UHGV virus genome: UHGV-1355336
From: a virus
Length of the DNA stretch: 35,822 bases
Reading direction: 5' to 3' (one strand)
Shown here: positions 1,765-33,467 of the stretch, in pieces
How positions within the stretch are numbered: position 1 is the first letter of the stretch
Layout: each line of letters begins with the position of its first letter
Notes under the pieces: generated by a model
Database searches by the model: none
The model's input: the letters and a program-made list of their open reading frames with translations, nothing else
What the model was told of the DNA's origin: nothing
Translations under genes and position numbers: made by a program

Positions 1765-4700
1765 ATGGGTAAAGGCAGCAGTAAGGGGCATACCCCGCGC
1801 GAAGCGAAGGACAACCTGAAATCCACGCAGTTGCTGAGTGTGATTGATGCCATCAGTGAAGGGCCGATTGAAGGTCCGGTGGATGGATTAAAAAGCGTGC
1901 TGCTGAACAGTACGCCGGTGCTGGACAGTGAGGGGAATACCAACATCGCCGGTGTCACGGTGGTGTTCCGGGCTGGTGAGCAGGAGCAGACTCCGCCGGA
2001 GGGATTTGAATCCTCCGGCTCCGAGACGGTGCTGGGTACGGAAGTGAAATACGACACGCCGATCACCCGCACCATCACGTCGGCAAACATCGACCGACTG
2101 CGCTTTACCTTCGGTGTGCAGGCACTGGTGGAAACCACCTCAAAGGGGGACCGGAATCCGTCGGAAGTTCGCCTGCTGGTTCAGATACAGCGTAATGGTG
2201 GCTGGGTGACGGAAAAAGACATCACCATTAAGGGCAAAACCACCTCGCAGTATCTGGCCTCGGTGGTGGTGGATAACCTGCCGCCGCGCCCGTTTAATAT
2301 CCGGATGCGCAGGATGACGCCGGACAGCACCACAGACCAGCTGCAGAACAAAACGCTCTGGTCGTCATACACCGAAATCATCGATGTGAAACAGTGCTAC
2401 CCGAACACGGCACTGGTCGGCGTGCAGGTGGACTCGGAGCAGTTCGGCAGCCAGCAGGTGAGCCGTAATTATCATCTTCGCGGGCGCATTCTGCAGGTGC
2501 CGTCGAACTATAACCCGCAGACGCGGCAATACAGTGGTATCTGGGACGGAACGTTAAAACCGGCATACAGCAACAACATGGCCTGGTGTCTGTGGGATAT
2601 GCTGACCCATCCGCGCTACGGCATGGGGAAACGTCTTGGTGCGGCGGATGTGGACAAATGGGCGCTGTATGTCATCGGCCAGCATTGCGATCAGTCGGTG
2701 CCGGACGGTTTTGGCGGCACGGAGCCGCGCATCACCTGTAATGCGTACCTGACCACACAGCGCAAGGCGTGGGATGTGCTCAGTGATTTCTGCTCGGCGA
2801 TGCGCTGTATGCCGGTATGGAACGGGCAGACGCTGACGTTCGTGCAGGACCGACCGTCGGATAAGGTGTGGACCTATAACCGCAGTAATGTGGTGATGCC
2901 GGATGATGGTGCGCCGTTCCGCTACAGCTTCAGCGCCCTGAAGGACCGCCATAATGCCGTTGAGGTGAACTGGATTGACCCGAATAACGGCTGGGAGACG
3001 GCGACAGAGCTTGTGGAGGACACGCAGGCCATTGCCCGTTACGGTCGTAACGTCACGAAGATGGATGCTTTTGGCTGTACCAGCCGGGGGCAGGCACACC
3101 GCGCCGGGCTGTGGCTGATTAAAACAGAACTGCTGGAAACGCAGACCGTGGACTTCAGCGTGGGTGCCGAAGGGCTTCGCCATGTACCGGGCGATGTCAT
3201 TGAAATCTGCGATGATGACTATGCCGGTATCCGCACCGGCGGGCGCGTGCTGGCGGTAAACAGCCAGACCCGGACGCTGACGCTCGACCGTGAAATCACG
3301 CTGCCATCTTCCGGCACCACGCTGATAAGCCTGGTTGACGGGCAGGGGAGTCCGGTCAGCGTGGAGGTTCAGTCCGTCACCGACGGCGTGAAGGTGAAAG
3401 TGAGCCGTGTTCCTGACGGCGTTGCTGAATACAGCGTATGGGGGCTGAAGCTGCCGACGTTGCGCCAGCGCCTGTTCCGCTGCGTGAGTATCCGTGAGAA
3501 CGACGACGGCACGTATGCCATCACCGCCGTGCAGCATGTACCGGAAAAAGAGGCCATCGTGGATAACGGGGCGCACTTTGACGGCGACCAGAGCGGCACG
3601 GTAAATGGTGTCACGCCGCCAGCGGTGCAGCACCTGACCGCAGAAGTCACCGCAGACAGCGGGGAATACCAGGTGCTGGCCCGCTGGGACACGCCGAAGG
3701 TGGTGAAGGGCGTGAGCTTCCTGCTTCGCCTGACCGTGGCAGCGGATGACGGCCGTGAGCGGCTGGTCAGCACGGCCCGGACGACGGAAACCACTTACCG
3801 CTTCACACAACTGGCGCTGGGGAACTACAGGCTGACAGTCCGGGCAGTAAATGCGTGGGGGCAGCAGGGCGATCCGGCGTCGGTATCGTTCCGGATTGCC
3901 GCACCGGCAGCGCCGTCGCGGATTGAGCTGACGCCGGGCTATTTTCAGATAACCGCCACGCCGCATCTTGCGGTTTATGACCCGACGGTACAGTTTGAGT
4001 TCTGGTTCTCGGAAAAACGGATTGCGGATATCAGGCAGGTTGAAACCACAGCCCGCTATCTTGGCACGGCGCTGTACTGGATAGCCGCCAGTATCAATAT
4101 CAAACCGGGCCATGATTATTATTTTTACGTTCGCAGTGTGAACACCGTTGGCAAATCGGCATTCGTGGAGGCTGTCGGTCAGCCGAGTGATGATGCATCA
4201 GGCTATCTGGATTTTTTCAAAGGCGAGATAGGGAAAACCCATCTGGCTCAGGAGCTGTGGACGCAGATTGATAACGGTCAGCTTGCGCCTGACCTGGCTG
4301 AAATCAGGACGTCCATTACGGATGTCAGCAATGAAATCACGCAGACCGTCAATAAGAAACTGGAAGACCAGAGTGCTGCAATTCAGCAGATACAGAAGGT
4401 TCAGGTTGATACAAATAATAACCTGAACAGCATGTGGGCTGTGAAGCTGCAGCAGATGCAGGACGGACGCCTTTATATCGCGGGTATTGGTGCCGGTATT
4501 GAGAACACCCCTGACGGCATGCAGAGTCAGGTGCTGCTGGCGGCGGACAGGATTGCGATGGTTAATCCTGCGAATGGCAACACAAAACCGATGTTTGTTG
4601 GTCAGGGCGATCAGATATTCATGAACGACGTGTTCCTGAAACGCCTGACGGCTCCCACCATTACCAGCGGTGGAAATCCGCCGGCATTTTCCCTGACACC

Positions 4701-5939: not shown

Positions 5940-5967
5940 AGCCCGCCGGTTCAGGCGGGCTTTTTTG
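5940..5967 (+). terminator. Rho-independent terminator after lom
   Basis: GCCCGCC-GGTTCA-GGCGGGC hairpin followed by TTTTTT. Confidence 0.65.
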
Positions 5968-5977
5968 TGGGGTGAAT

Positions 5978-8900
5978 ATGGCAGTAAAAATTTCAGGTGT
6001 ACTGAAAGACGGCACAGGAAAACCGGTACAGAACTGCACAATCCAGCTGAAAGCAAAACGTAACAGTACCACGGTGGTGGTGAACACGCTGGCATCTGAA
6101 AATCCGGATGAAGCCGGGCGTTACAGTATGGACGTTGAGTACGGTCAGTACAGCGTTATTCTGTTGGTGGAAGGATTCCCGCCGTCACATGCCGGGACCA
6201 TCACCGTGTATGAAGACTCACAACCGGGTACGCTGAATGATTTTCTCGGTGCCATGACGGAGGATGATGCCCGTCCGGAGGCACTGCGCCGTTTTGAGCT
6301 GATGGTGGAAGAGGTGGCGCGTAACGCGTCCGTGGTGGCACAGAACACGGCAGCCGCGAAGAAGTCAGCCAGCGATGCCGGCACATCAGCCCGTGAGGCG
6401 GCAACCCATGCGACTGATGCTGCAGGCTCAGCAAGCGCAGCCAGCACGTCAGCCGGACAGGCCGCGTCGTCGGCTCAGTCAGCATCTTCCAGCGCAGGAA
6501 CGGCATCAACAAAGGCCAGTGAAGCATCGAAAAGTGCTGCTGCTGCAGAGTCCTCAAAAAGCGCGGCAGCTACCAGTGCCGCTGCGGCGAAAACGTCAGA
6601 AACGAATGCGGCAGCGTCACAACAATCAGCAGCCACTTCTGCATCCGCCGCGACCACGAAGGCGTCAGAAGCAGCCACCTCAGCCCGGGATGCGGCGGCC
6701 TCAAAAGAGGCAGCGAAATCATCAGAAACGAACGCATCCTCGAGCGCCAGTAGTGCCGCTTCCTCGGCAACGGCGGCAGGCAATTCCGCGAAGGCGGCAA
6801 AGACGTCTGAGACAAACGCCAGGTCTTCTGAAACGGCAGCGGAACAGAGTGCCTCAGCTGCGGCAGGCTCAAAAACAGCGGCTGCGTCGTCTGCCAGTGC
6901 AGCGTCAACAAGTGCCGGGCAGGCCTCAGCCAGTGCTAGCGCCGCCGGAAAATCGGCAGAAAGCGCCGCATCGTCCGCTTCAACAGCCACAACGAAGGCT
7001 GGCGAAGCCACTGAACAGGCCAGCGCAGCAGCGAGGTCTGCTTCCGCAGCGAAGACATCCGAGACGAACGCGAAAGCGTCGGAAACCAGCGCAGAATCCT
7101 CAAAAACGGCTGCCGCATCGTCCGCCAGTTCGGCGGCGTCATCGGCATCATCTGCGTCTGCTTCAAAAGATGAGGCGACCAGACAGGCATCAGCAGCGAA
7201 AGGCAGCGCCACGACGGCATCCACGAAGGCGACAGAGGCAGCTGGTAGTGCGACGGCGGCAGCTCAGAGCAAAAGTACGGCGGAATCCGCGGCAACGCGC
7301 GCCGAGACAGCAGCAAAACGGGCAGAGGATATTGCATCCGCCGTGGCGCTTGAGGATGCAAGTACGACGAAAAAGGGGATAGTACAGCTCAGCAGTGCGA
7401 CCAACAGTACGTCTGAAACGCTGGCGGCAACGCCAAAGGCAGTAAAATCAGCCTATGACAATGCAGAGAAACGTCTGCAGAAAGACCAGAACGGCGCTGA
7501 TATACCCGATAAGGGACGCTTCCTGAACAACATTAACGCGGTCAGTAAAACAGACTTTGCTGATAAGCGTGGTATGCGTTATGTGCGGGTTAACGCTCCT
7601 GCAGGTGCAACATCTGGAAAATATTACCCTGTTGTTGTTATGCGTTCTGCTGGCTCAGTAAGCGAACTGGCATCAAGGGTCATTATCACCACGGCAACGC
7701 GAACCGCAGGCGATCCGATGAATAACTGCGAGTTTAACGGATTTGTTATGCCTGGTGGCTGGACTGACAGGGGGCGTTATGCTTATGGCATGTTCTGGCA
7801 ATATCAAAACAATGAACGAGCCATCCACTCAATAATGATGAGTAATAAGGGCGATGATTTGCGCTCTGTGTTCTATGTTGATGGCGCTGCTTTCCCTGTT
7901 TTTGCGTTTATCGAAGATGGCCTGTCAATATCCGCACCTGGTGCTGATCTCGTTGTTAATGATACGACCTATAAGTTTGGGGCAACAAATCCGGCGACTG
8001 AATGTATCGCGGCGGACGTTATCCTTGATTTTAAGAGTGGGCGTGGTTTTTATGAGTCTCATTCGTTAATCGTTAACGATAACTTGTCGTGCAAAAAACT
8101 TTTTGCCACAGACGAAATTGTAGCGCGTGGTGGTAATCAGATTCGAATGATAGGTGGGGAGTATGGGGCATTATGGCGTAATGATGGCGCTAAAACTTAC
8201 CTGCTGCTTACCAATCAAGGTGATGTTTATGGTGGATGGAATACATTAAGACCGTTTGCTATTGATAACGCAACCGGCGAACTGGTTATTGGAACCAAGC
8301 TGTCTGCAAGTCTGAACGGTAACGCATTGACAGCAACAAAGCTGCAAACGCCAAGACGGGTTTCTGGTGTTGAGTTTGATGGTTCCAGAGATATTACTTT
8401 AACCGCCGCGCATGTGGCTGCTTTTGCCAGAAGGGCAACGGATACGTATGCCGATGCGGATGGGGGCGTTCCATGGAATGCCGAATCAGGCGCTTACAAT
8501 GTCACCCGCTCTGGCGACAGCTATATTCTGGTTAACTTCTATACCGGAGTCGGAAGTTGCCGGACCTTGCAGATGAAGGCACATTACAGAAATGGAGGTC
8601 TGTTCTACCGTTCCTCAAGAGATGGCTATGGTTTTGAGGAAGACTGGGCAGAAGTTTATACCTCGAAAAATCTTCCACCAGAAAGCTACCCAGTCGGCGC
8701 ACCAATCCCGTGGCCATCAGATACCGTTCCGTCTGGTTATGCCCTGATGCAGGGGCAGACTTTTGACAAATCTGCTTACCCGAAACTTGCAGTTGCTTAT
8801 CCGTCAGGCGTGATCCCTGATATGCGTGGCTGGACGATTAAGGGCAAGCCCGCCAGTGGTCGTGCCGTATTGTCTCAGGAACAGGACGGCATTAAATCGC

Positions 8901-9328
8901 ACACCCACAGCGCCAGCGCATCCAGTACGGATTTGGGGACGAAAACCACATCGTCGTTTGATTACGGCACTAAATCCACGAATAACACTGGTGCGCATAC
9001 CCATAGTGTTAGCGGTACGGCTGCTTCAGCCGGTGCACATACCCATTCGATGACATTTGTTTCAGGTGGTTCCAGTGGTGCTCCGGGAAGTGGATCACCT
9101 GATTATTCTAAATACAGTGTTAACACTTCTTCTGCAGGCGCTCATACGCACTCTGTATCGGGTACTGCTGCAAGCGCAGGTGCACACGCACATACTGTCG
9201 GTATTGGTGCTCATACGCACTCCGTTGCGATTGGTTCACATGGACATACCATCACCGTTAACGCTGCTGGTAACGCGGAAAACACCGTCAAAAACATCGC
9301 ATTTAACTATATTGTGAGGCTTGCATAA
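5978..9328 (+). CDS. stf: Side tail fibre protein (Stf/StfR-like) with Ala/Ser-rich repeat rod and His-rich C-terminal domain
   Basis: ATG at 5978 gives [27 protein letters not shown]... (lambda Stf-like N-terminus); ~330 aa of low-complexity A/S/T repeats with recurring KTSETNA units; C-terminus has repeated GAHTHS / HxH motifs. Confidence 0.85.
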
Positions 9329-9912
9329 TGGCATTCAGAATGAGTGAACAACCACGGACCATAAAAATTTATAATCTGCTGGCCGGAACTAATGAATTTA
9401 TTGGTGAAGGTGACGCATATATTCCGCCTCATACAGGTCTGCCAGCAAACAGTACCGATATTGCACCGCCAGATATTCCGGCAGGCTTCGTGGCTGTTTT
9501 CAACAGTGATGAGGCATCGTGGCATCTCGTTGAAGATCATCGGGGTAAAACGGTTTATGACGTGGCTTCCGGCGACGCGTTATTTATTTCTGAACTCGGT
9601 CCGTTACCGGAAAATGCCACTTGGTTATCCCCGGAAGGGGAGTTTCAGAAGTGGAACGGCACAGCCTGGGTGAAAGATGCAGAAGCAGAAAAACTATTCC
9701 GGATCCGGGAGGCGGAAGAAACAAAAAACAGCCTGATGCAGGCAGCGAATGAGCATATTGCGCCACTTCAGGATGCTGTAGATCTGGAAATCGCAACGGA
9801 GGAAGAAACCTTGTTGCTGGAAGCCTGGAAAAAGTATCGGGTGTTGCTGAACCGTGTTGATACATCAACTGCACCTGATATTGAGTGGCCTACGAACCCT
9901 GTCAGGGAGTAA
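9328..9912 (+). CDS. tfa: Tail fibre assembly chaperone Tfa
   Basis: 194 aa, start overlaps stf stop (TAATG); [54 protein letters not shown]... is typical Tfa. Confidence 0.85.
9751..9867 (+). repeat. Direct repeat copy 1 (3' part of tfa); copy 2 lies in the downstream tfa fragment
   Basis: [30 protein letters not shown] coding stretch recurs near-identically at ~10800-10913. Confidence 0.6.
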
Positions 9913-27907: not shown

Positions 27908-28660
27908 ATGAACCTTGAAGCCTTACCAAAATATTACTCCCCAAAATCTCCAAAATTGAGCGATGACGCACCGGCGACAGGCTCAGGTGGTTTAACGATT
28001 ACGGATGTGATGGCTGCGCAGGGGATGGTGCAGTCGAAAGCACCGCTTGGGTTTGCCTTATTCCTGGCAAAAGTTGGTGTTCAGGATCCTCAGTTTGCGA
28101 TTGAAGGTCTGCTCAATTACGCGATGGCAATGGATAACCCGACATTGAACAAATTGAGTGAAGAAACCCGGTTACAGATCATCCCTTACCTTGTGAGTTT
28201 TGCCTTTGCTGATTATTCCAGGTCTGCGGCAAGTAAGGCTCGCTGTGAGCATTGTGCTGGTACTGGATTTCATAGTGTATTGCGCGAAGTGGTGAAACAC
28301 TCCAGAAGCGGGGAATCTGTTATCAAGGAAGAGTGGGTGAAGGAATTATGTCAGCATTGCCATGGTAAGGGAGAAGTCAGCACGGCTTGCAGAGGGTGTA
28401 AGGGTAAAGGCATTGTCCTGGATGAAAAAAGAACCCGGCTTCATGGCGCGCCTGTTTATAAGATTTGTGGGCGTTGCAATGGAAACCGGTTTAGTCGTTT
28501 ACCGACCACACTGGCACGACGTCATGTCCAGAAGCTGGTACCAGACCTGACTGATTATCAGTGGTACAAAGGATATGCAGACGTCATTGATAAACTGGTA
28601 ACAAAGTGCTGGCAGGAAGAAGCATTCGCTGAAGCACAATTGAGAAAGGTGACGAGATAA
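27908..28660 (+). CDS. Q: Late-gene antiterminator Q (QuuQ-type, 250 aa)
   Basis: Cys-rich zinc-binding region (CEHCAGTG...CQHCHGKG...CRGCKGKG...CGRCNG); followed by promoter-like sequence and an intrinsic terminator. Confidence 0.75.
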   Translation: MNLEALPKYYSPKSPKLSDDAPATGSGGLTITDVMAAQGMVQSKAPLGFALFLAKVGVQDPQFAIEGLLNYAMAMDNPTLNKLSEETRLQIIPYLVSFAFADYSRSAASKARCEHCAGTGFHSVLREVVKHSRSGESVIKEEWVKELCQHCHGKGEVSTACRGCKGKGIVLDEKRTRLHGAPVYKICGRCNGNRFSRLPTTLARRHVQKLVPDLTDYQWYKGYADVIDKLVTKCWQEEAFAEAQLRKVTR

Positions 28661-28691: not shown

Positions 28692-28720
28692 TTGCATTTC
28701 TCAAAAAATATGGATAAGAT
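28692..28720 (+). promoter_or_regulatory. Candidate late promoter pR' (TTGCAT-17-TAAGAT)
   Basis: Sigma-70-like hexamers with 17-nt spacer ~30 nt after the Q stop and ~45 nt before a terminator. Confidence 0.4.
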
Positions 28721-28765
28721 TTTCCCAACGATGGGCTTTGTATGTCTACCGTTGATGAGTCCAAG

Positions 28766-28797
28766 AACCCGCCGCCGAGCGGGTTAAATTATTTTTT
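28766..28797 (+). terminator. Candidate tR' intrinsic terminator
   Basis: AACCCGC-CGCCGA-GCGGGTT hairpin followed by AAATTATTTTTTCTT. Confidence 0.6.
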
Positions 28798-28814: not shown

Positions 28815-29345
28815 ATGTTATACCGAGATCTTTTGCCTATTTTCTCAGAAAGACCCATATTTAAAGCTCCTGAGGCTGAAAGAATACTTCGTGAGCAATA
28901 TTCTATCGCCGCCCCCACTCCTGTAATTCAGGAGATTTATTATGGATTGGCAGGTTATGACAGATTTCAGGAGCTTTATGGGGATCTTAATATTGACCAA
29001 ATCGAATGGAAATTGATTGAACTTCCCACTAAAAATTTTTTAACTATCGGGGATAATGCTACTTACCCTGATTTTTTGCATGAGGTCGTTGAAGATTTCA
29101 CAACCCGTAAAGGCGATGTATTTATGGATGATGAAATAAAAGCGCATTGGTGTAATTTTGGCACATGGTGTGAACCTCCATTTTTTATAGATCGAGCTTT
29201 GCTGAAAAGTAATACAACAGGGCTTCATTTAATGGAAGGGCATACAAGAGTTGGAACCCTGTTAGGGGCAGTTAAGTATAACTTCGTTAAGCTTGCTAAT
29301 ACTCATAAAATTTATTATGCGCAAGCAAAAGAATGTATTAAATAA
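28815..29345 (+). CDS. Unknown-function protein (176 aa) in the Q-S cargo position
   Basis: ATG preceded by GGGGAT; AT-rich compared with flanking phage genes; followed by its own terminator; contains LMEGHTRVGTLLGA, weakly reminiscent of ParB/Srx DGHHR motifs. Confidence 0.5.
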   Translation: MLYRDLLPIFSERPIFKAPEAERILREQYSIAAPTPVIQEIYYGLAGYDRFQELYGDLNIDQIEWKLIELPTKNFLTIGDNATYPDFLHEVVEDFTTRKGDVFMDDEIKAHWCNFGTWCEPPFFIDRALLKSNTTGLHLMEGHTRVGTLLGAVKYNFVKLANTHKIYYAQAKECIK

Positions 29346-29381: not shown

Positions 29382-29404
29382 ACCGCGTTCTCGCGGTTTT
29401 TTTA
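29382..29404 (+). terminator. Rho-independent terminator after the 176-aa ORF
   Basis: ACCGCG-TTCT-CGCGGT followed by TTTTTTT. Confidence 0.6.
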
Positions 29405-29870: not shown

Positions 29871-30932
29871 ATGAAAAACACTGTAAAAATAAACAGTATT
29901 GATTTAATCAACGCTGATTGCCTGCATTTTATTCAGTCCCTGCCTGATGATTCCATTGACCTGATTGTTACCGATCCGCCTTACTTCAAGGTGAAACCCA
30001 ACGGTTGGGACAATCAGTGGAAAGGGGACGAAGATTACCTTAAGTGGCTGGACCACTGTCTGGCCCAGTTCTGGCAGGTGTTGAAACCTGCCGGAAGCCT
30101 TTACCTGTTCTGTGGGCATCGCCTGGCATCTGATATTGAGATCATGATGCGTGAACGTTTCAACGTGCTTAACCATATCATCTGGGCGAAGCCGTCCGGA
30201 CGTTGGAATGGGTGTAATAAAGAAAGTCTGCGCGCATATTTTCCTGCCACAGAGCGCGTTCTGTTTGCTGAACATTACCGGGGGCCATATCGCGGCAAAA
30301 GTGACGGCTATGTGGCAAAAGAAAGGGAACTCAAACAGCACATAATGGCACCGCTGATATCGTATTTCAGGGATGCTCGTGCCGAACTGGGTATAACGGC
30401 AAAACAAATTGCCGAAGCCACAGGTAAGAAAAATATGGTTTCCCACTGGTTTGGTGCCAGTCAGTGGCAGTTGCCGAATGAGGCTGACTACCGGAAGTTA
30501 CAGGCACTGTTTTCCCGTATAGCGGCAGAGAAGTTTCAGGAACAACAACTGGAACAACCACACCACCAGTTGGTGGCATCTTATGATTCACTGAATCGCA
30601 AATATTCTGAATTGCTGGATGAGTTTAAATCTCTCCGGCGCTATTTCTCCGTATCAGTCTCCGTGCCTTATACCGATGTCTGGATGCATAAACCCGTTCA
30701 GTTCTACCCGGGTAAACATCCGTGTGAGAAACCGGCGGATATGCTCAGGCAAATAATCAATGCCAGTAGTCGACCCGGCGATCTGGTTGCTGATTTCTTT
30801 ATGGGATCCGGTTCCACAATAAAAGCAGCAATGGCGCTGGGGCGTCGGGCGTTAGGTGTTGAGCTTGAGACAGAGCGGTTTAATCAGACCATCCAGGAAA
30901 TCAGTATGTTATCAGCAAATACAATTTTGTGA
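29871..30932 (+). CDS. DNA methyltransferase, beta-class (motif IV DPPY before motif I FxGxG); likely N6-adenine, orphan
   Basis: VTDPPYF near the N-terminus and DFFMGSGST near the C-terminus; no adjacent restriction endonuclease candidate. Confidence 0.8.
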   Translation: MKNTVKINSIDLINADCLHFIQSLPDDSIDLIVTDPPYFKVKPNGWDNQWKGDEDYLKWLDHCLAQFWQVLKPAGSLYLFCGHRLASDIEIMMRERFNVLNHIIWAKPSGRWNGCNKESLRAYFPATERVLFAEHYRGPYRGKSDGYVAKERELKQHIMAPLISYFRDARAELGITAKQIAEATGKKNMVSHWFGASQWQLPNEADYRKLQALFSRIAAEKFQEQQLEQPHHQLVASYDSLNRKYSELLDEFKSLRRYFSVSVSVPYTDVWMHKPVQFYPGKHPCEKPADMLRQIINASSRPGDLVADFFMGSGSTIKAAMALGRRALGVELETERFNQTIQEISMLSANTIL

Positions 30933-30942
30933 ATTAATTCAA

Positions 30943-30971
30943 TTATTGGTGGGATGTCTGTGCCGTATAAT
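30943..30971 (+). promoter_or_regulatory. Candidate sigma-70 promoter (TTATTG-17-TATAAT) just after the methyltransferase gene
   Basis: Perfect -10 hexamer TATAAT at ~30966-30971; no ORF of 60 aa or more for ~1 kb downstream. Confidence 0.35.
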
Positions 30972-31173
30972 GATTACAGATACAGTGTATCCTGCAATGC
31001 AGCAGGGCTGATGTGGTGGGTTGTACATAGCCTGCAAAGGATTGGCTTCATTAATTCATCGTTGATACAAGCGAGTCACGGTTGACCACGCCAACGGCTC
31101 ATCGGTAAAAATCCGACACCGTGTCTTCTTAACTCACTTATTGTTTCCACCCATGTTTTTGGATACCTGCTGT

Positions 31174-31214
31174 AGCTGTCAGATTAGCGCGATAATCTGA
31201 CAGCTTTTTTTTTA
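31174..31214 (+). terminator. Strong intrinsic terminator (13-bp stem AGCTGTCAGATTA..TAATCTGACAGCT then T9)
   Basis: Read directly; about 235 nt downstream of the candidate promoter. Confidence 0.6.
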
Positions 31215-31503
31215 CAACGAATCCTTCTGATCTGCTTTTGCGGGGCTTTTTTGTATCCGCTCCATGCCCGGCGTATAAGCGGAGGTTGGTCAGTTTTCTA
31301 AAAATTGAAATACCTCACAATTCAGCCAGTTAATGGTTGTTTGTCTGGCGAAGAGTTTGTAAATAAAAAAACGCATGGTGAATCCCCCTAAGCGGCGGGG
31401 CGAATCAGCAGTCAGTTCTGGGATAATCGCGGGTTCGTATGCTGATGCCGGACTCACCGGGAGGCACCCGGCACCATGCATCATGGTCATCCCCTTGTAT
31501 GAT

Positions 31504-31529
31504 ACCCCTCTCCGGAGGGGTATTTTTTG
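31504..31529 (+). terminator. Intrinsic terminator (ACCCCTC-TCCG-GAGGGGT then ATTTTTT)
   Basis: Read directly in ORF-poor DNA upstream of the holin. Confidence 0.6.
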
Positions 31530-31960
31530 GATAAAAAAGCCCGCGCTGGGAGGCACGGGCGGCAAGGAATAAAACGTGAAGAAATTTTCACAGGCGCATA
31601 ATAATCCGATGTTGCCAGATTTTGCAACTGCATCATCTGGTTATTATGTGAGCTGGAAAATCAGATTCTGTATGGACTGAAGCCATGCTGTTATTTAGGG
31701 CCAAAGAGCTGGCTTTTTCCCGCCTTCTCTCCAGTAACGATTAATGAGAAAAGAATGAAATGCTTTTCCTGGGGAGGAGGGCAGTAGAAAAAAGAACCCG
31801 CCAGCAAAAATATGGGGGATGAACAGCTTTTGCTACTCAGGTTGCTGGCGGGTATGGTTCTTCATGAAATAAGAATGTTACGCGGTATTTTTAATGAAAA
31901 TGATAATTATTGTCAATTGGTTGTGCGTATTTTTTCATACATGACTGGTAAAGGTGATTC

Positions 31961-31996
31961 AGGCCATCAGAGTTTTGCTGATGGCCTTTTTTCTTT
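31961..31996 (+). terminator. Intrinsic terminator (AGGCCATCAG-agttttg-CTGATGGCCT then TTTTTCTTT) 30 nt before the holin start
   Basis: 10-bp perfect stem; U-rich tail. Confidence 0.6.
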
Positions 31997-32025
31997 CCGG
32001 TAGCACAGGTCTGTTGGGGCGGGAT

Positions 32026-32241
32026 ATGTATCAGATGGAAAAAATATCAACAGGCATTGCCTACGGCACCTCCGCAGGCAGTGCTGGCTACTGGTTTTTA
32101 CAATGGCTTGATCAGGTTAGTCCGTCTCAGTGGGCTGCGATTGGTGTACTGGGAAGTCTGGTTCTGGGCTTTCTGACTTATCTGACGAATCTGTACTTCA
32201 AAATCAGAGAAGACAGAAGAAAGGCTGCGAGAGGAGAGTAA
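32026..32241 (+). CDS. S: Class II pinholin (phage 21 S-type) with dual-start motif
   Basis: [71 protein letters not shown] (71 aa), two TMDs, Met1/Met4 starts; matches recalled S21. Confidence 0.9.
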
Positions 32242-32245
32242 TATA

Positions 32246-32590
32246 ATGGTCCAAAACTATGAAATGATTGTGAAAGGGATCCGCAATTTTGAGAATAAAG
32301 TTACGGTAACTTTAGCATTACAGGACAAAGAACGCTTTGACGGTGAAATTTTTGACCTGGACATCTCGCTGGACCGTGTTGAAGGTGCCGCGCTGGAGTT
32401 TTATGAGGCAGCAGCCAGAAGGAGCATCAGACAGGTCTTCCTGGATGTTGCTACCGGGTTATGTGGAGGGGATGAGCAGTCGCCGGAAAAGCGCCCCATA
32501 ATTTTAGAGGCGCAGAGTGTGTGGATAACCTACAAAGGAAAACTGCCGGGAAGAATTACTGGTTCACTGAAGACTCCGCCGAAATGGTAA
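32246..32590 (+). CDS. Unknown protein inserted between holin and endolysin (possibly YdfR-like)
   Basis: 114 aa; SD AGGAGA 7 nt before ATG; co-directional with the lysis genes. Confidence 0.5.
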   Translation: MVQNYEMIVKGIRNFENKVTVTLALQDKERFDGEIFDLDISLDRVEGAALEFYEAAARRSIRQVFLDVATGLCGGDEQSPEKRPIILEAQSVWITYKGKLPGRITGSLKTPPKW

Positions 32591-32828
32591 TTTCACCAGC
32601 ATATTTTTCCTCCAGTAATACCGCCAGCCACTTGAAAGAATTTTGTTGTTGCTGGGACCATTTGGGATTGATTGATTCAAGCTGGAGCGATGCCAGTGTT
32701 GGTTGCATTTGTTCCTTGGGAATTGAGAATGCCAGATATGAAAATGCGACAGTAAGGGCATTTACATCATCCCGAAGCCTGGAAATGCAGTCGAGCAACT
32801 CCTGTAGAGAAATGGTGCTATTGTCCAT
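32556..32828 (-). CDS. Unknown small protein, convergent with the previous ORF
   Basis: ATG at 32828 with SD-like AGAGAGGA 6 nt upstream; 90 aa; 3' ends of the two ORFs overlap by ~35 nt. Confidence 0.35.
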   Translation of the reverse strand: MDNSTISLQELLDCISRLRDDVNALTVAFSYLAFSIPKEQMQPTLASLQLESINPKWSQQQQNSFKWLAVLLEEKYAGEITISAESSVNQ

Positions 32829-32933
32829 AAACAATCCTCTCTATTGTATTTAACTATTCCTTGCCTGATTCAACAGGCCGGGACAGATAAACATATCCAG
32901 GGTTCAGAAACCGATAAATCCTGATAAATATCC

Positions 32934-33467
32934 ATGAACGCAAAAATCAGATACGGCCTGTCGGCTGCCGTTCTGGCACTGATTGCCGTCGGTGCGCCTG
33001 CGCCTGATATTCTCGACCAGTTTCTGGATGAAAAAGAAGGTAACCACACAACGGCATACCGCGATGGTTCCGGCATCTGGACCATCTGTCGGGGTGCCAC
33101 GGTGGTGGATGGAAAACCCGTTGTTCCCGGTATGAAACTGTCGAAGGAAAAATGCGACCAGGTTAACGCCATTGAACGGGATAAGGCGCTGGCATGGGTG
33201 GAGCGCAATATTAAAGTGCCACTGACCGAACCACAGAAAGCGGGTATCGCGTCATTTTGTCCCTATAACATTGGCCCCGGTAAGTGTTTCCCGTCGACGT
33301 TTTATAAGCGGCTGAATGCCGGTGATCGTAAAGGTGCATGCGAGGCGATTCGCTGGTGGATAAAAGATGGTGGGCGCGATTGCCGCATACGTTCAAATAA
33401 CTGCTATGGACAGGTTATTCGTCGTGACCAGGAAAGCGCATTAGCCTGTTGGGGGATAGATCAGTGA
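32934..33467 (+). CDS. R: SAR endolysin (phage 21 R-type lysozyme)
   Basis: N-terminal SAR segment [16 protein letters not shown]; catalytic region [20 protein letters not shown] of T4-lysozyme-like enzymes. Confidence 0.9.

Follow-up and report, generated by a model that had tools for sequence, protein, structure and literature searches.

A candidate island of small RNA genes upstream of the holin gene in a lambdoid Escherichia coli prophage

Layout and terminators of the interval

The virus genome UHGV-1355336, a stretch of 35,822 nucleotides referred to here as the window, is a lambdoid Escherichia coli prophage of extraintestinal pathogenic (ExPEC) and avian pathogenic (APEC) strains. We analyzed its interval 30933-32025 directly upstream of the holin gene, for which an original prediction had proposed small RNAs (sRNAs) and/or stacked terminators to be read through by a Q-modified polymerase. 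Both halves of this proposal fit the locus, considering the presence of an STnc100 family member and of a homologue of an Hfq-bound sRNA as well as the position within the late operon. Most probably, the plus strand carries unit 1 (a divergent STnc100-like RNA) and STnc100, the minus strand carries an EcOnc08/21/42-type and a PasA/PasC-like unit, and a last plus-strand terminator precedes the holin gene. The features of the interval are the following.

30943-30971, plus strand: putative promoter element of unit 1 (TTATTG, 17 nt, TATAAT) with an A/T-rich upstream block
30978-31213, plus strand: unit 1, divergent STnc100-like sRNA gene of ~236 nt, 5' end predicted
31231-31255, plus strand: terminator-like site, relic terminator of a tRNA cassette, homologous to the sequence after tRNA-Arg in the related loci L003, L012, and L014
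31290-31484, minus strand: hypothetical protein WP_000972071.1 of RefSeq and the Prokaryotic Genome Annotation Pipeline (PGAP)
31344-31532, plus strand: STnc100-family sRNA gene (RF02076) with terminator 31501-31524, 5' end predicted
31533-31627, minus strand: convergent sRNA gene (-35 TTGCAA 31627 to 31622, 18 nt, -10 TATTAT 31603 to 31598)
31584-31661: imperfect palindrome with 32-nt arms (72% complementary), centred on the palindromic TTGCAA that is the -35 of the convergent sRNA
31628-31787: spacer, well conserved at 31631-31700 and variable with indels at 31700-31786
31788-31916, minus strand: PasA/PasC-like sRNA gene (-35 TTGACA 31916 to 31911, 17 nt, -10 TAAAAA 31893 to 31888)
31812-32003, plus strand: RefSeq/PGAP hypothetical protein WP_000502162.1
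31961-31993, plus strand: terminator, 32 nt 5' of the holin start

The proposed promoter with a 17-nt spacing was found in place, with TTATTG at 30943-30948 and TATAAT at 30966-30971; the promoter scanner did not list it, since the -35 matches the consensus in only two of six positions. The very strong terminator expected ~235 nt further on is located at 31174-31205 (13 bp stem followed by T9), and the two additional strong terminators correspond to 31501-31524 and 31961-31987, all three on the plus strand. A long inverted repeat had also been noticed correctly, with perfect 12-nt arms at 31796-31807 and 31842-31853, while its role as a minus-strand terminator had been missed. Likewise absent from the earlier reading was a strong minus-strand terminator from 31560 to 31539 together with its matching minus-strand promoter. 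Within the region 30000-33000, 13 terminator-like sites stand against 2.7 +/- 2.2 in dinucleotide shuffles, an approximately five-fold excess, and promoter-like sites are not enriched in the same region (4 vs 4.3 in shuffles). A single TATAAT is within chance expectation; the one of unit 1 gains its significance from being conserved in four divergent homologues.

Plus-strand units: STnc100 and a putative divergent relative

The Rfam/Infernal scan suggested along with the original prediction returned an STnc100 match with 114.5 bits (gathering score 47) and E=1.5e-24. The cmscan match at 31344-31532 spans the full model (positions 1-206), and by this homology the locus is a plain STnc100 family member. 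Its counterpart in enterohaemorrhagic E. coli (EHEC) is EcOnc27, also named sRNA103, and homology with the long EHEC form (~235 nt) begins at 31315. The homologous RNA domain is found immediately 3' of stx2B in the Sakai prophage Sp5, where the published EcOnc27 Northern probe matches; this Northern blot displayed bands of ~235/247 nt, the 247-nt band being destabilised without hfq. Both RNAs lie in the prophage late region and face an antisense sRNA tail to tail, in Sp5 3' of stx2B. They differ in that STnc100 follows the methylase gene and unit 1 here, not stx2AB or tRNA genes, and in that the 3' tail and terminator of EcOnc27 are unlike those of 31344-31532. Further STnc100 homologues in the same late-region position are present in L003, a Shiga toxin 2a (Stx2a) phage, and in L012-L016. 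In E. coli SF-088 (L015), two tandem STnc100 copies (2323-2513 and 2791-3000) parallel the succession of unit 1 and STnc100.

Unit 1 was compared in four divergent variants, i.e., this prophage, L039, L052, and L011, throughout which TATAAT and the upstream block GTGAATTAAYTCAATTATTRG are invariant. L011 (strain UTME-7) is its only distant E. coli homologue, with 72% identity and located in an island rich in insertion sequences (IS); the remaining two variants came from IMG/VR. In the predicted RNA, a structured domain at the 5' end is joined by a pyrimidine-rich linker (31125-31170) to the terminator 31174-31205 with T9. Against Rfam STnc100, unit 1 reached 17.6 bits with E=0.44 across 4227 families (~1e-4 for STnc100 alone), and the UTME-7 homologue independently matched the same family with 23.0 bits and E=0.0064, both scores staying below the gathering score of 47 bits. 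RNAalifold on the four variants recovered the STnc100-type closing helix, the hairpins, and the terminator. The closing helix forms with seven of eight pairs in this prophage and with all eight in L039, L052, and L011. Throughout the alignment, 97.8% of the cells are paired, and some compensatory pairs are located outside the terminator. In total, eight pairs changed on both sides compared with 2.9 +/- 1.3 in shuffles, and none of 500 shuffles reached eight. With regard to the proposed check for conservation and covariation, compensatory pairs were found among these four variants and a compensatory change of the holin-proximal terminator in L004.

Regarding its distribution, GTDB representative genomes were searched for relatives of unit 1, without a match for a 24-mer and with only chance matches in unrelated phyla for an 18-mer. 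Searches of isolated phages with unit 1 and with 31640-32030 gave no homologues, or only the holin-proximal 50 bp. In related prophages, the methylase gene is followed by three tRNA genes (tRNA-Ile/Arg/Arg) at the slot of unit 1, so that unit 1 fills the place of this cassette; ARAGORN detected no tRNA genes in the interval itself. In L052 (IMG/VR UViG_2778261277_000006, 5943-6246), unit 1 abuts the holin gene, and STnc100, antisense, and PasA-like units are missing. L039 (3845-4077) is near-identical to this prophage save for a mosaic patch corresponding to 30938-31072 within unit 1. These two layouts suggest that the RNA units behave as exchangeable cassettes.

A close parallel is provided by PasD1/PasD2 (EcOnc13), described as structural relatives of STnc100 by Zhu et al. 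(bioRxiv 10.64898/2026.05.13.724894). Like these, unit 1 combines an STnc100-type 5' domain with its own linker (seed) and its own terminator and stays below the Rfam threshold. As a separate branch it differs from PasD in sequence, in its consensus -10, in its length of ~236 nt, and in occupying the tRNA-cassette slot. The attempt to build a new covariance model from STnc100 and PasD aligned jointly was given up, as MAFFT misaligned the PasD 3' side and the RNAalifold structure was confounded. We give even chances to unit 1 being an expressed and so far undescribed third STnc100/PasD branch, in which the conserved, structured 5' scaffold is combined with a pyrimidine-rich seed of a new kind and a consensus -10 promoter, the whole having entered by cassette exchange the slot used for rare-codon tRNA genes in related prophages. 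If so, five sRNA genes would be packed into 1.1 kb, and the STnc100/PasD superfamily would look like a modular platform in which a fixed scaffold with an exchangeable seed rewires host regulation.

Minus-strand units and the holin-proximal terminator

The first minus-strand unit is predicted to produce an RNA of 59 nt (31591 to 31533; fold z = -5.98) whose 3' end at 31533 abuts the STnc100 3' end at 31532. It is predicted to fold with a hairpin at the 5' end, followed by UUAUUCCUUGCC as unpaired seed and a GC-rich terminator (31560 to 31539) with U6. BLAST identified units of 77-82% identity at the same place in O157:H7, in other E. coli prophages, in the Stx2a phage, and in prophage PP6 of the enteropathogenic E. 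coli (EPEC) strain E2348/69, including L012 and L013. In the alignment of these units, the seed CCUUGCC and seven of eight terminator pairs are invariant. The -10, seed, and terminator are kept across two sequence classes, and the sequence 5' of the -35 is unrelated between them. The EPEC homologue is the Hfq-associated sRNA E2348C_1409.E2348C_1408.IGR, detected by RNA interaction by ligation and sequencing (RIL-seq) and equated by its authors with EHEC EcOnc08/21/42 (PMC8550237, Table S6). Its reported partners comprise the 5' untranslated region of cfa, dppA, tir, emrA, and others, which carry GGCA(A/G)GG, complementary to the seed (PMC8550237).

Considering the homologous -10, 5' hairpin, seed UUAUUCCUUGCC, and terminator as well as the same orientation and partner, the minus-strand partner of STnc100 is by homology a member of the EcOnc08/21/42 family and not AsxR/AgvB. 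The published RNAs of this family are longer, with 182 to ~271 nt; homology here stops at the promoter (~31609-31627), and the copy in this prophage is devoid of a 7-10 nt linker segment. The length of the RNA here is therefore uncertain, and a longer precursor may exist.

Tree et al. 2014 (PMC4104026) reported Hfq-binding sRNAs arranged as convergent pairs, among them the anti-sRNAs AsxR and AgvB, in the region that separates the pR' morons from the lysis genes, and the architecture here matches theirs. In Sakai Sp5, EcOnc27 abuts antisense AsxR 3' of stx2B. Like AsxR/AgvB, the minus-strand unit is short, antisense, and equipped with its own predicted promoter, its 3' end abutting an STnc100-type sRNA between pR' and the lysis genes, and its predicted size of ~59 nt is within their range of 51-60 nt. 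An identity with AsxR, AgvB, or EcOnc03 was nevertheless rejected, as the published sequences differ from the RNA here. The Rfam models of AsxR (RF02703) and AgvB (RF02702) gave no match at E<=10, and the ~42-nt 3' region conserved in AsxR/AgvB (GUAUCUCAUGC..UUGCCCGAACCCAYUCGGGC) does not occur in this RNA. As its sequence is unlike AsxR/AgvB, a sponge (anti-sRNA) function is not implied. Esr41 was likewise rejected, being encoded on SpLE1 and giving no Rfam match.

The promoter of this unit is embedded in the palindrome 31584-31661, which may constitute an operator or a divergent promoter region. The operator idea derives from the homologue in MS20657, where three ATCAGGTT/AACCTGAT copies occupy the palindrome site. 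A plus-strand sRNA starting from the mirrored TATTAT (31642-47) was discarded, since just 14 nt separate this hexamer from TTGCAA and the hairpin is not intact in MS20657.

Beyond the spacer, the second minus-strand unit would give rise to an RNA of ~94 nt (31881 to 31788; fold z = -6.33) terminated by the above-mentioned inverted repeat (12-bp stem), which is followed by UCUUUUUU on the minus strand. It shares with PasA (85 nt), PasC (79 nt), and an EcOnc32-like unit of E2348/69 prophage PP4 the position next to the holin gene, the minus strand, the ATTGACAA context of the -35, an RNA size of roughly 80-110 nt, and a terminator with GCCAGC in its 5' arm. PasA and PasC correspond to EcOnc51/52, and GCCAGC is the seed region of PasA. 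The terminator loop here is much longer than in PasA/PasC, and it is in ExPEC prophages, prophage remnants, and ColV plasmids that the present class is typically found. A blastn comparison of PasA/PasC of E2348/69 with 31788-31916 (word size 7, E<=0.1) yielded no match, and the MAFFT alignment was poor. This similarity is too low to establish membership, and the unit is best described as PasA/PasC-like.

The block 31629-31996, which takes in the PasA/PasC-like unit and the holin-proximal terminator, is kept at ~84% identity in >2200 E. coli genomes, including a remnant in Nissle 1917 and ColV-type plasmids. On the latter, it adjoins iss with ~84% identity (L010, p3PCN033, 2501-2862). It is also found in degraded chromosomal prophage remnants lacking the holin gene (L009, Nissle 1917, 2501-2862). 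The spacer 31628-31787 gave no Rfam match of note. A 17-nt direct repeat of 82% identity (31741-31757 and 31861-31877, offset by 120 nt) may be the trace of a second, decayed PasA-like unit that followed the first one on the minus strand; this recalls EPEC PasA, for which a read-through form of 236 nt is described. In the PP4 locus of E2348/69 (L005), EPEC RIL-seq chimeras assigned to the coding sequence E2348C_1013 map to the terminator of the EcOnc32-like sRNA (2114-2150, minus strand). The abundant Hfq partner labelled E2348C_1013 is therefore probably this sRNA rather than an mRNA.

The last element, the plus-strand terminator 31961-31993, belongs to a hairpin class (GCCATCAG...CTGRTGGC followed by a T-run) whose distance to the holin ATG is the same in L003, L004, L005, L008, L012, L014, and L015. 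This class precedes P21-type holins whatever lies 5' of it, and L004 displays a compensatory change from A-U to G-C. Its main role can be considered that of an insulator of the lysis cassette. It may in addition form the 3' end of a short plus-strand RNA (31936-31993), a poorly supported assignment. The Rfam model of the SgrS 3' end matched 31896-31992 on the plus strand below threshold (24.8 bits, gathering score 37, E=2e-4), and CAUGACUG-GUAAAGGUG together with a GCCAUCAG hairpin is reminiscent of seed and terminator of SgrS. Judged by eye, complementarity to the ptsG leader looked weak.

Prophage context, mechanism, and alternative explanations

The interval is located inside the Q-dependent late operon, 2.3 kb 3' of the likely late promoter, with the following genes and sites around it.

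5' of Q: DUF968/HNH gene, in the gene order upstream of the interval
27908-28660, plus strand: antiterminator Q (Pfam PF03589, E=1.7e-53)
28692-28720, plus strand: candidate pR' (TTGCAT, 17 nt, TAAGAT) directly after Q, assigned from its position
28766-28785 and T tail, plus strand: candidate tR' from the terminator scan (pR'/tR' element extending to 28795)
28815-29345: AT-rich moron (phrog_8867)
Between this moron and the methyltransferase gene: small helix-turn-helix gene
29871-30932: N6/N4 DNA methyltransferase gene, immediately 5' of the interval
32026-32241, plus strand: class II (P21-type) holin gene, first lysis gene (Pfam PF04971, E=1.2e-35; RefSeq: holin)
3' of the holin gene: YdfR, lysozyme, and Rz
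3' of the lysis genes, opposite strand: iss/bor

Since the interval lies between the pR'/tR' candidate and the holin gene, late transcription must pass its terminators. Read-through of terminators by the Q-modified polymerase is established lambdoid biology. Most likely, the interval represents an island of sRNA genes in the moron insertion zone of the lambdoid late operon, composed of four or five short units, each equipped with a sigma-70-type promoter and a Rho-independent terminator. In the lysogen, ordinary RNA polymerase would transcribe these units from their own promoters and stop at their own terminators, and the plus-strand terminators would keep unit transcription out of the lysis genes. 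By analogy to their homologues, the RNAs may bind Hfq and target, in trans and by base pairing, mRNAs or sRNAs of the host and of islands, the minus-strand RNA presumably through its conserved CCUUGCC seed. After induction, Q-modified polymerase starting from pR' (~28.7 kb) would ignore the terminators and proceed into the genes for holin, endolysin, and Rz.

Several observations weigh against this reading. All 5' ends in this prophage are predicted from sequence, and transcription, Hfq dependence, and targets are carried over from relatives by analogy. The -35 of unit 1 is poor, several promoters of the interval have weak hexamers, and the -10 assigned to the short RNA 31936-31993 is poor as well. 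Unit 1 is far under the Rfam gathering threshold, and support for its structure comes from four variants, with the structure derived from the same sequences. The homologues of the convergent minus-strand RNA measure 182 to ~271 nt, not 59, and their 5' parts are unrelated to this prophage. The kinship to PasA/PasC is positional and architectural and not demonstrable by sequence search; part of the corresponding block occurs on remnants and ColV plasmids, where it possibly hitch-hikes.

Among the alternatives, the interval could, besides STnc100, be a mere stack of terminators with decayed debris of morons and tRNA cassettes, in which the hairpins insulate the lysis genes and the promoter hexamers are fortuitous. 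The number of promoter-like sites not exceeding that of shuffles and the weakness of several hexamers agree with this, as do the relic tRNA-cassette terminator and the variable stretch 31700-31786, which show that remnants accumulate here. In other prophages, a protein-coding moron lies immediately 5' of the holin-proximal terminator, and no sRNA promoter is present. We nevertheless consider such an accumulation unlikely, because the -10s of unit 1 and of the convergent minus-strand sRNA are fixed in spacing across divergent classes whereas their flanks are not, and because terminators on the minus strand cannot insulate lysis genes on the plus strand. Furthermore, homologues of three units are experimentally Hfq-bound in EHEC or EPEC, and unit 1 has compensatory pairs outside its terminator. 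A leader function of the TATAAT promoter is by far less probable still. Lambda pR'-tR' gives rise to a short terminated transcript 5' of the lysis genes, and the promoter with its terminator ~235 nt further on recalls this geometry, as if it were the pR'/tR' element making a 6S/StxS-like leader as substrate of Q antitermination. As with lambda 6S and StxS, the transcript would be a short terminated one of the late operon read through by Q-modified polymerase, but the candidate pR'-tR' element of this prophage is positioned at ~28.7 kb, outside the interval. Q ends at 28660, 2.3 kb upstream of 30943, and is followed by its own promoter-like site and terminator (28692-28795). The methylase and other genes separate Q from the promoter at 30943, relatives carry tRNA genes in the slot of unit 1, and unit 1 is closer to STnc100 than to a qut/pause region. 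The promoter at 30943-30971 is not pR'.

That the interval encodes the small proteins WP_000972071.1 and WP_000502162.1 is likewise very improbable. Both are ATG-initiated frames of 63-64 amino acids, annotated by PGAP in many genomes. In tblastn comparisons with the homologous loci, frameshifts, in-frame stops, or a lost start codon break both frames in every non-identical homologue, in agreement with the earlier statement that the interval holds no convincing open reading frame (ORF). The minus-strand frame runs antisense to STnc100; residues common to it and its relatives simply reflect translation of conserved RNA helices. For the plus-strand ORF (31812-32003), the only one of the two scanned against Pfam, no match was obtained. 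The two hypothetical proteins are thus probably artefacts of translating structured RNA, and a conserved protein-coding gene, named at the outset as possible counter-evidence, did not emerge.

This type of locus has already been published for EHEC and EPEC prophages (PMC4104026, PMC7873438, PMC8550237), and according to a review, at least eight Sakai prophages carry such dyads 3' of pR' and ahead of the lysis genes. The general principle being published, the gain is incremental. The sRNA dyad architecture of EHEC/EPEC Stx-type prophages would extend to a prophage of extraintestinal and avian pathogenic E. coli carrying iss/bor, and would here be expanded to four to five units. New in this respect are the ExPEC/APEC instance, the expansion, and the divergent unit 1 missed by Rfam thresholds and annotation. 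If expressed, the RNAs would be candidates for prophage control of host genes, considering that the EPEC homologue of the convergent unit pairs with cfa, dppA, and tir.

The interval 30933-32025 occurs with 100% identity in ~120 complete genomes, including IHE3034, APEC O78, and PMV-1, and parts of it are present in ~1600 of 5426 genomes. In strain 14EC001, the prophage adjoins tRNA-Arg and fimZ. Within the upstream region, a bidirectional terminator at 29382-29397 belongs to the moron 28815-29345; this moron gave no match in Pfam, nor, with a view to a defence function, in PADLOC. PasB, of which IS009 has been reported to be a common neighbour, gave no probe matches in the whole window, where the gap between tail genes I and J measures just 60 bp. 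A full-length Rfam match to IS009 itself (213.9 bits) is located at 9671-9869 on the plus strand, within the tail-fibre-assembly ORF 9328-9912.

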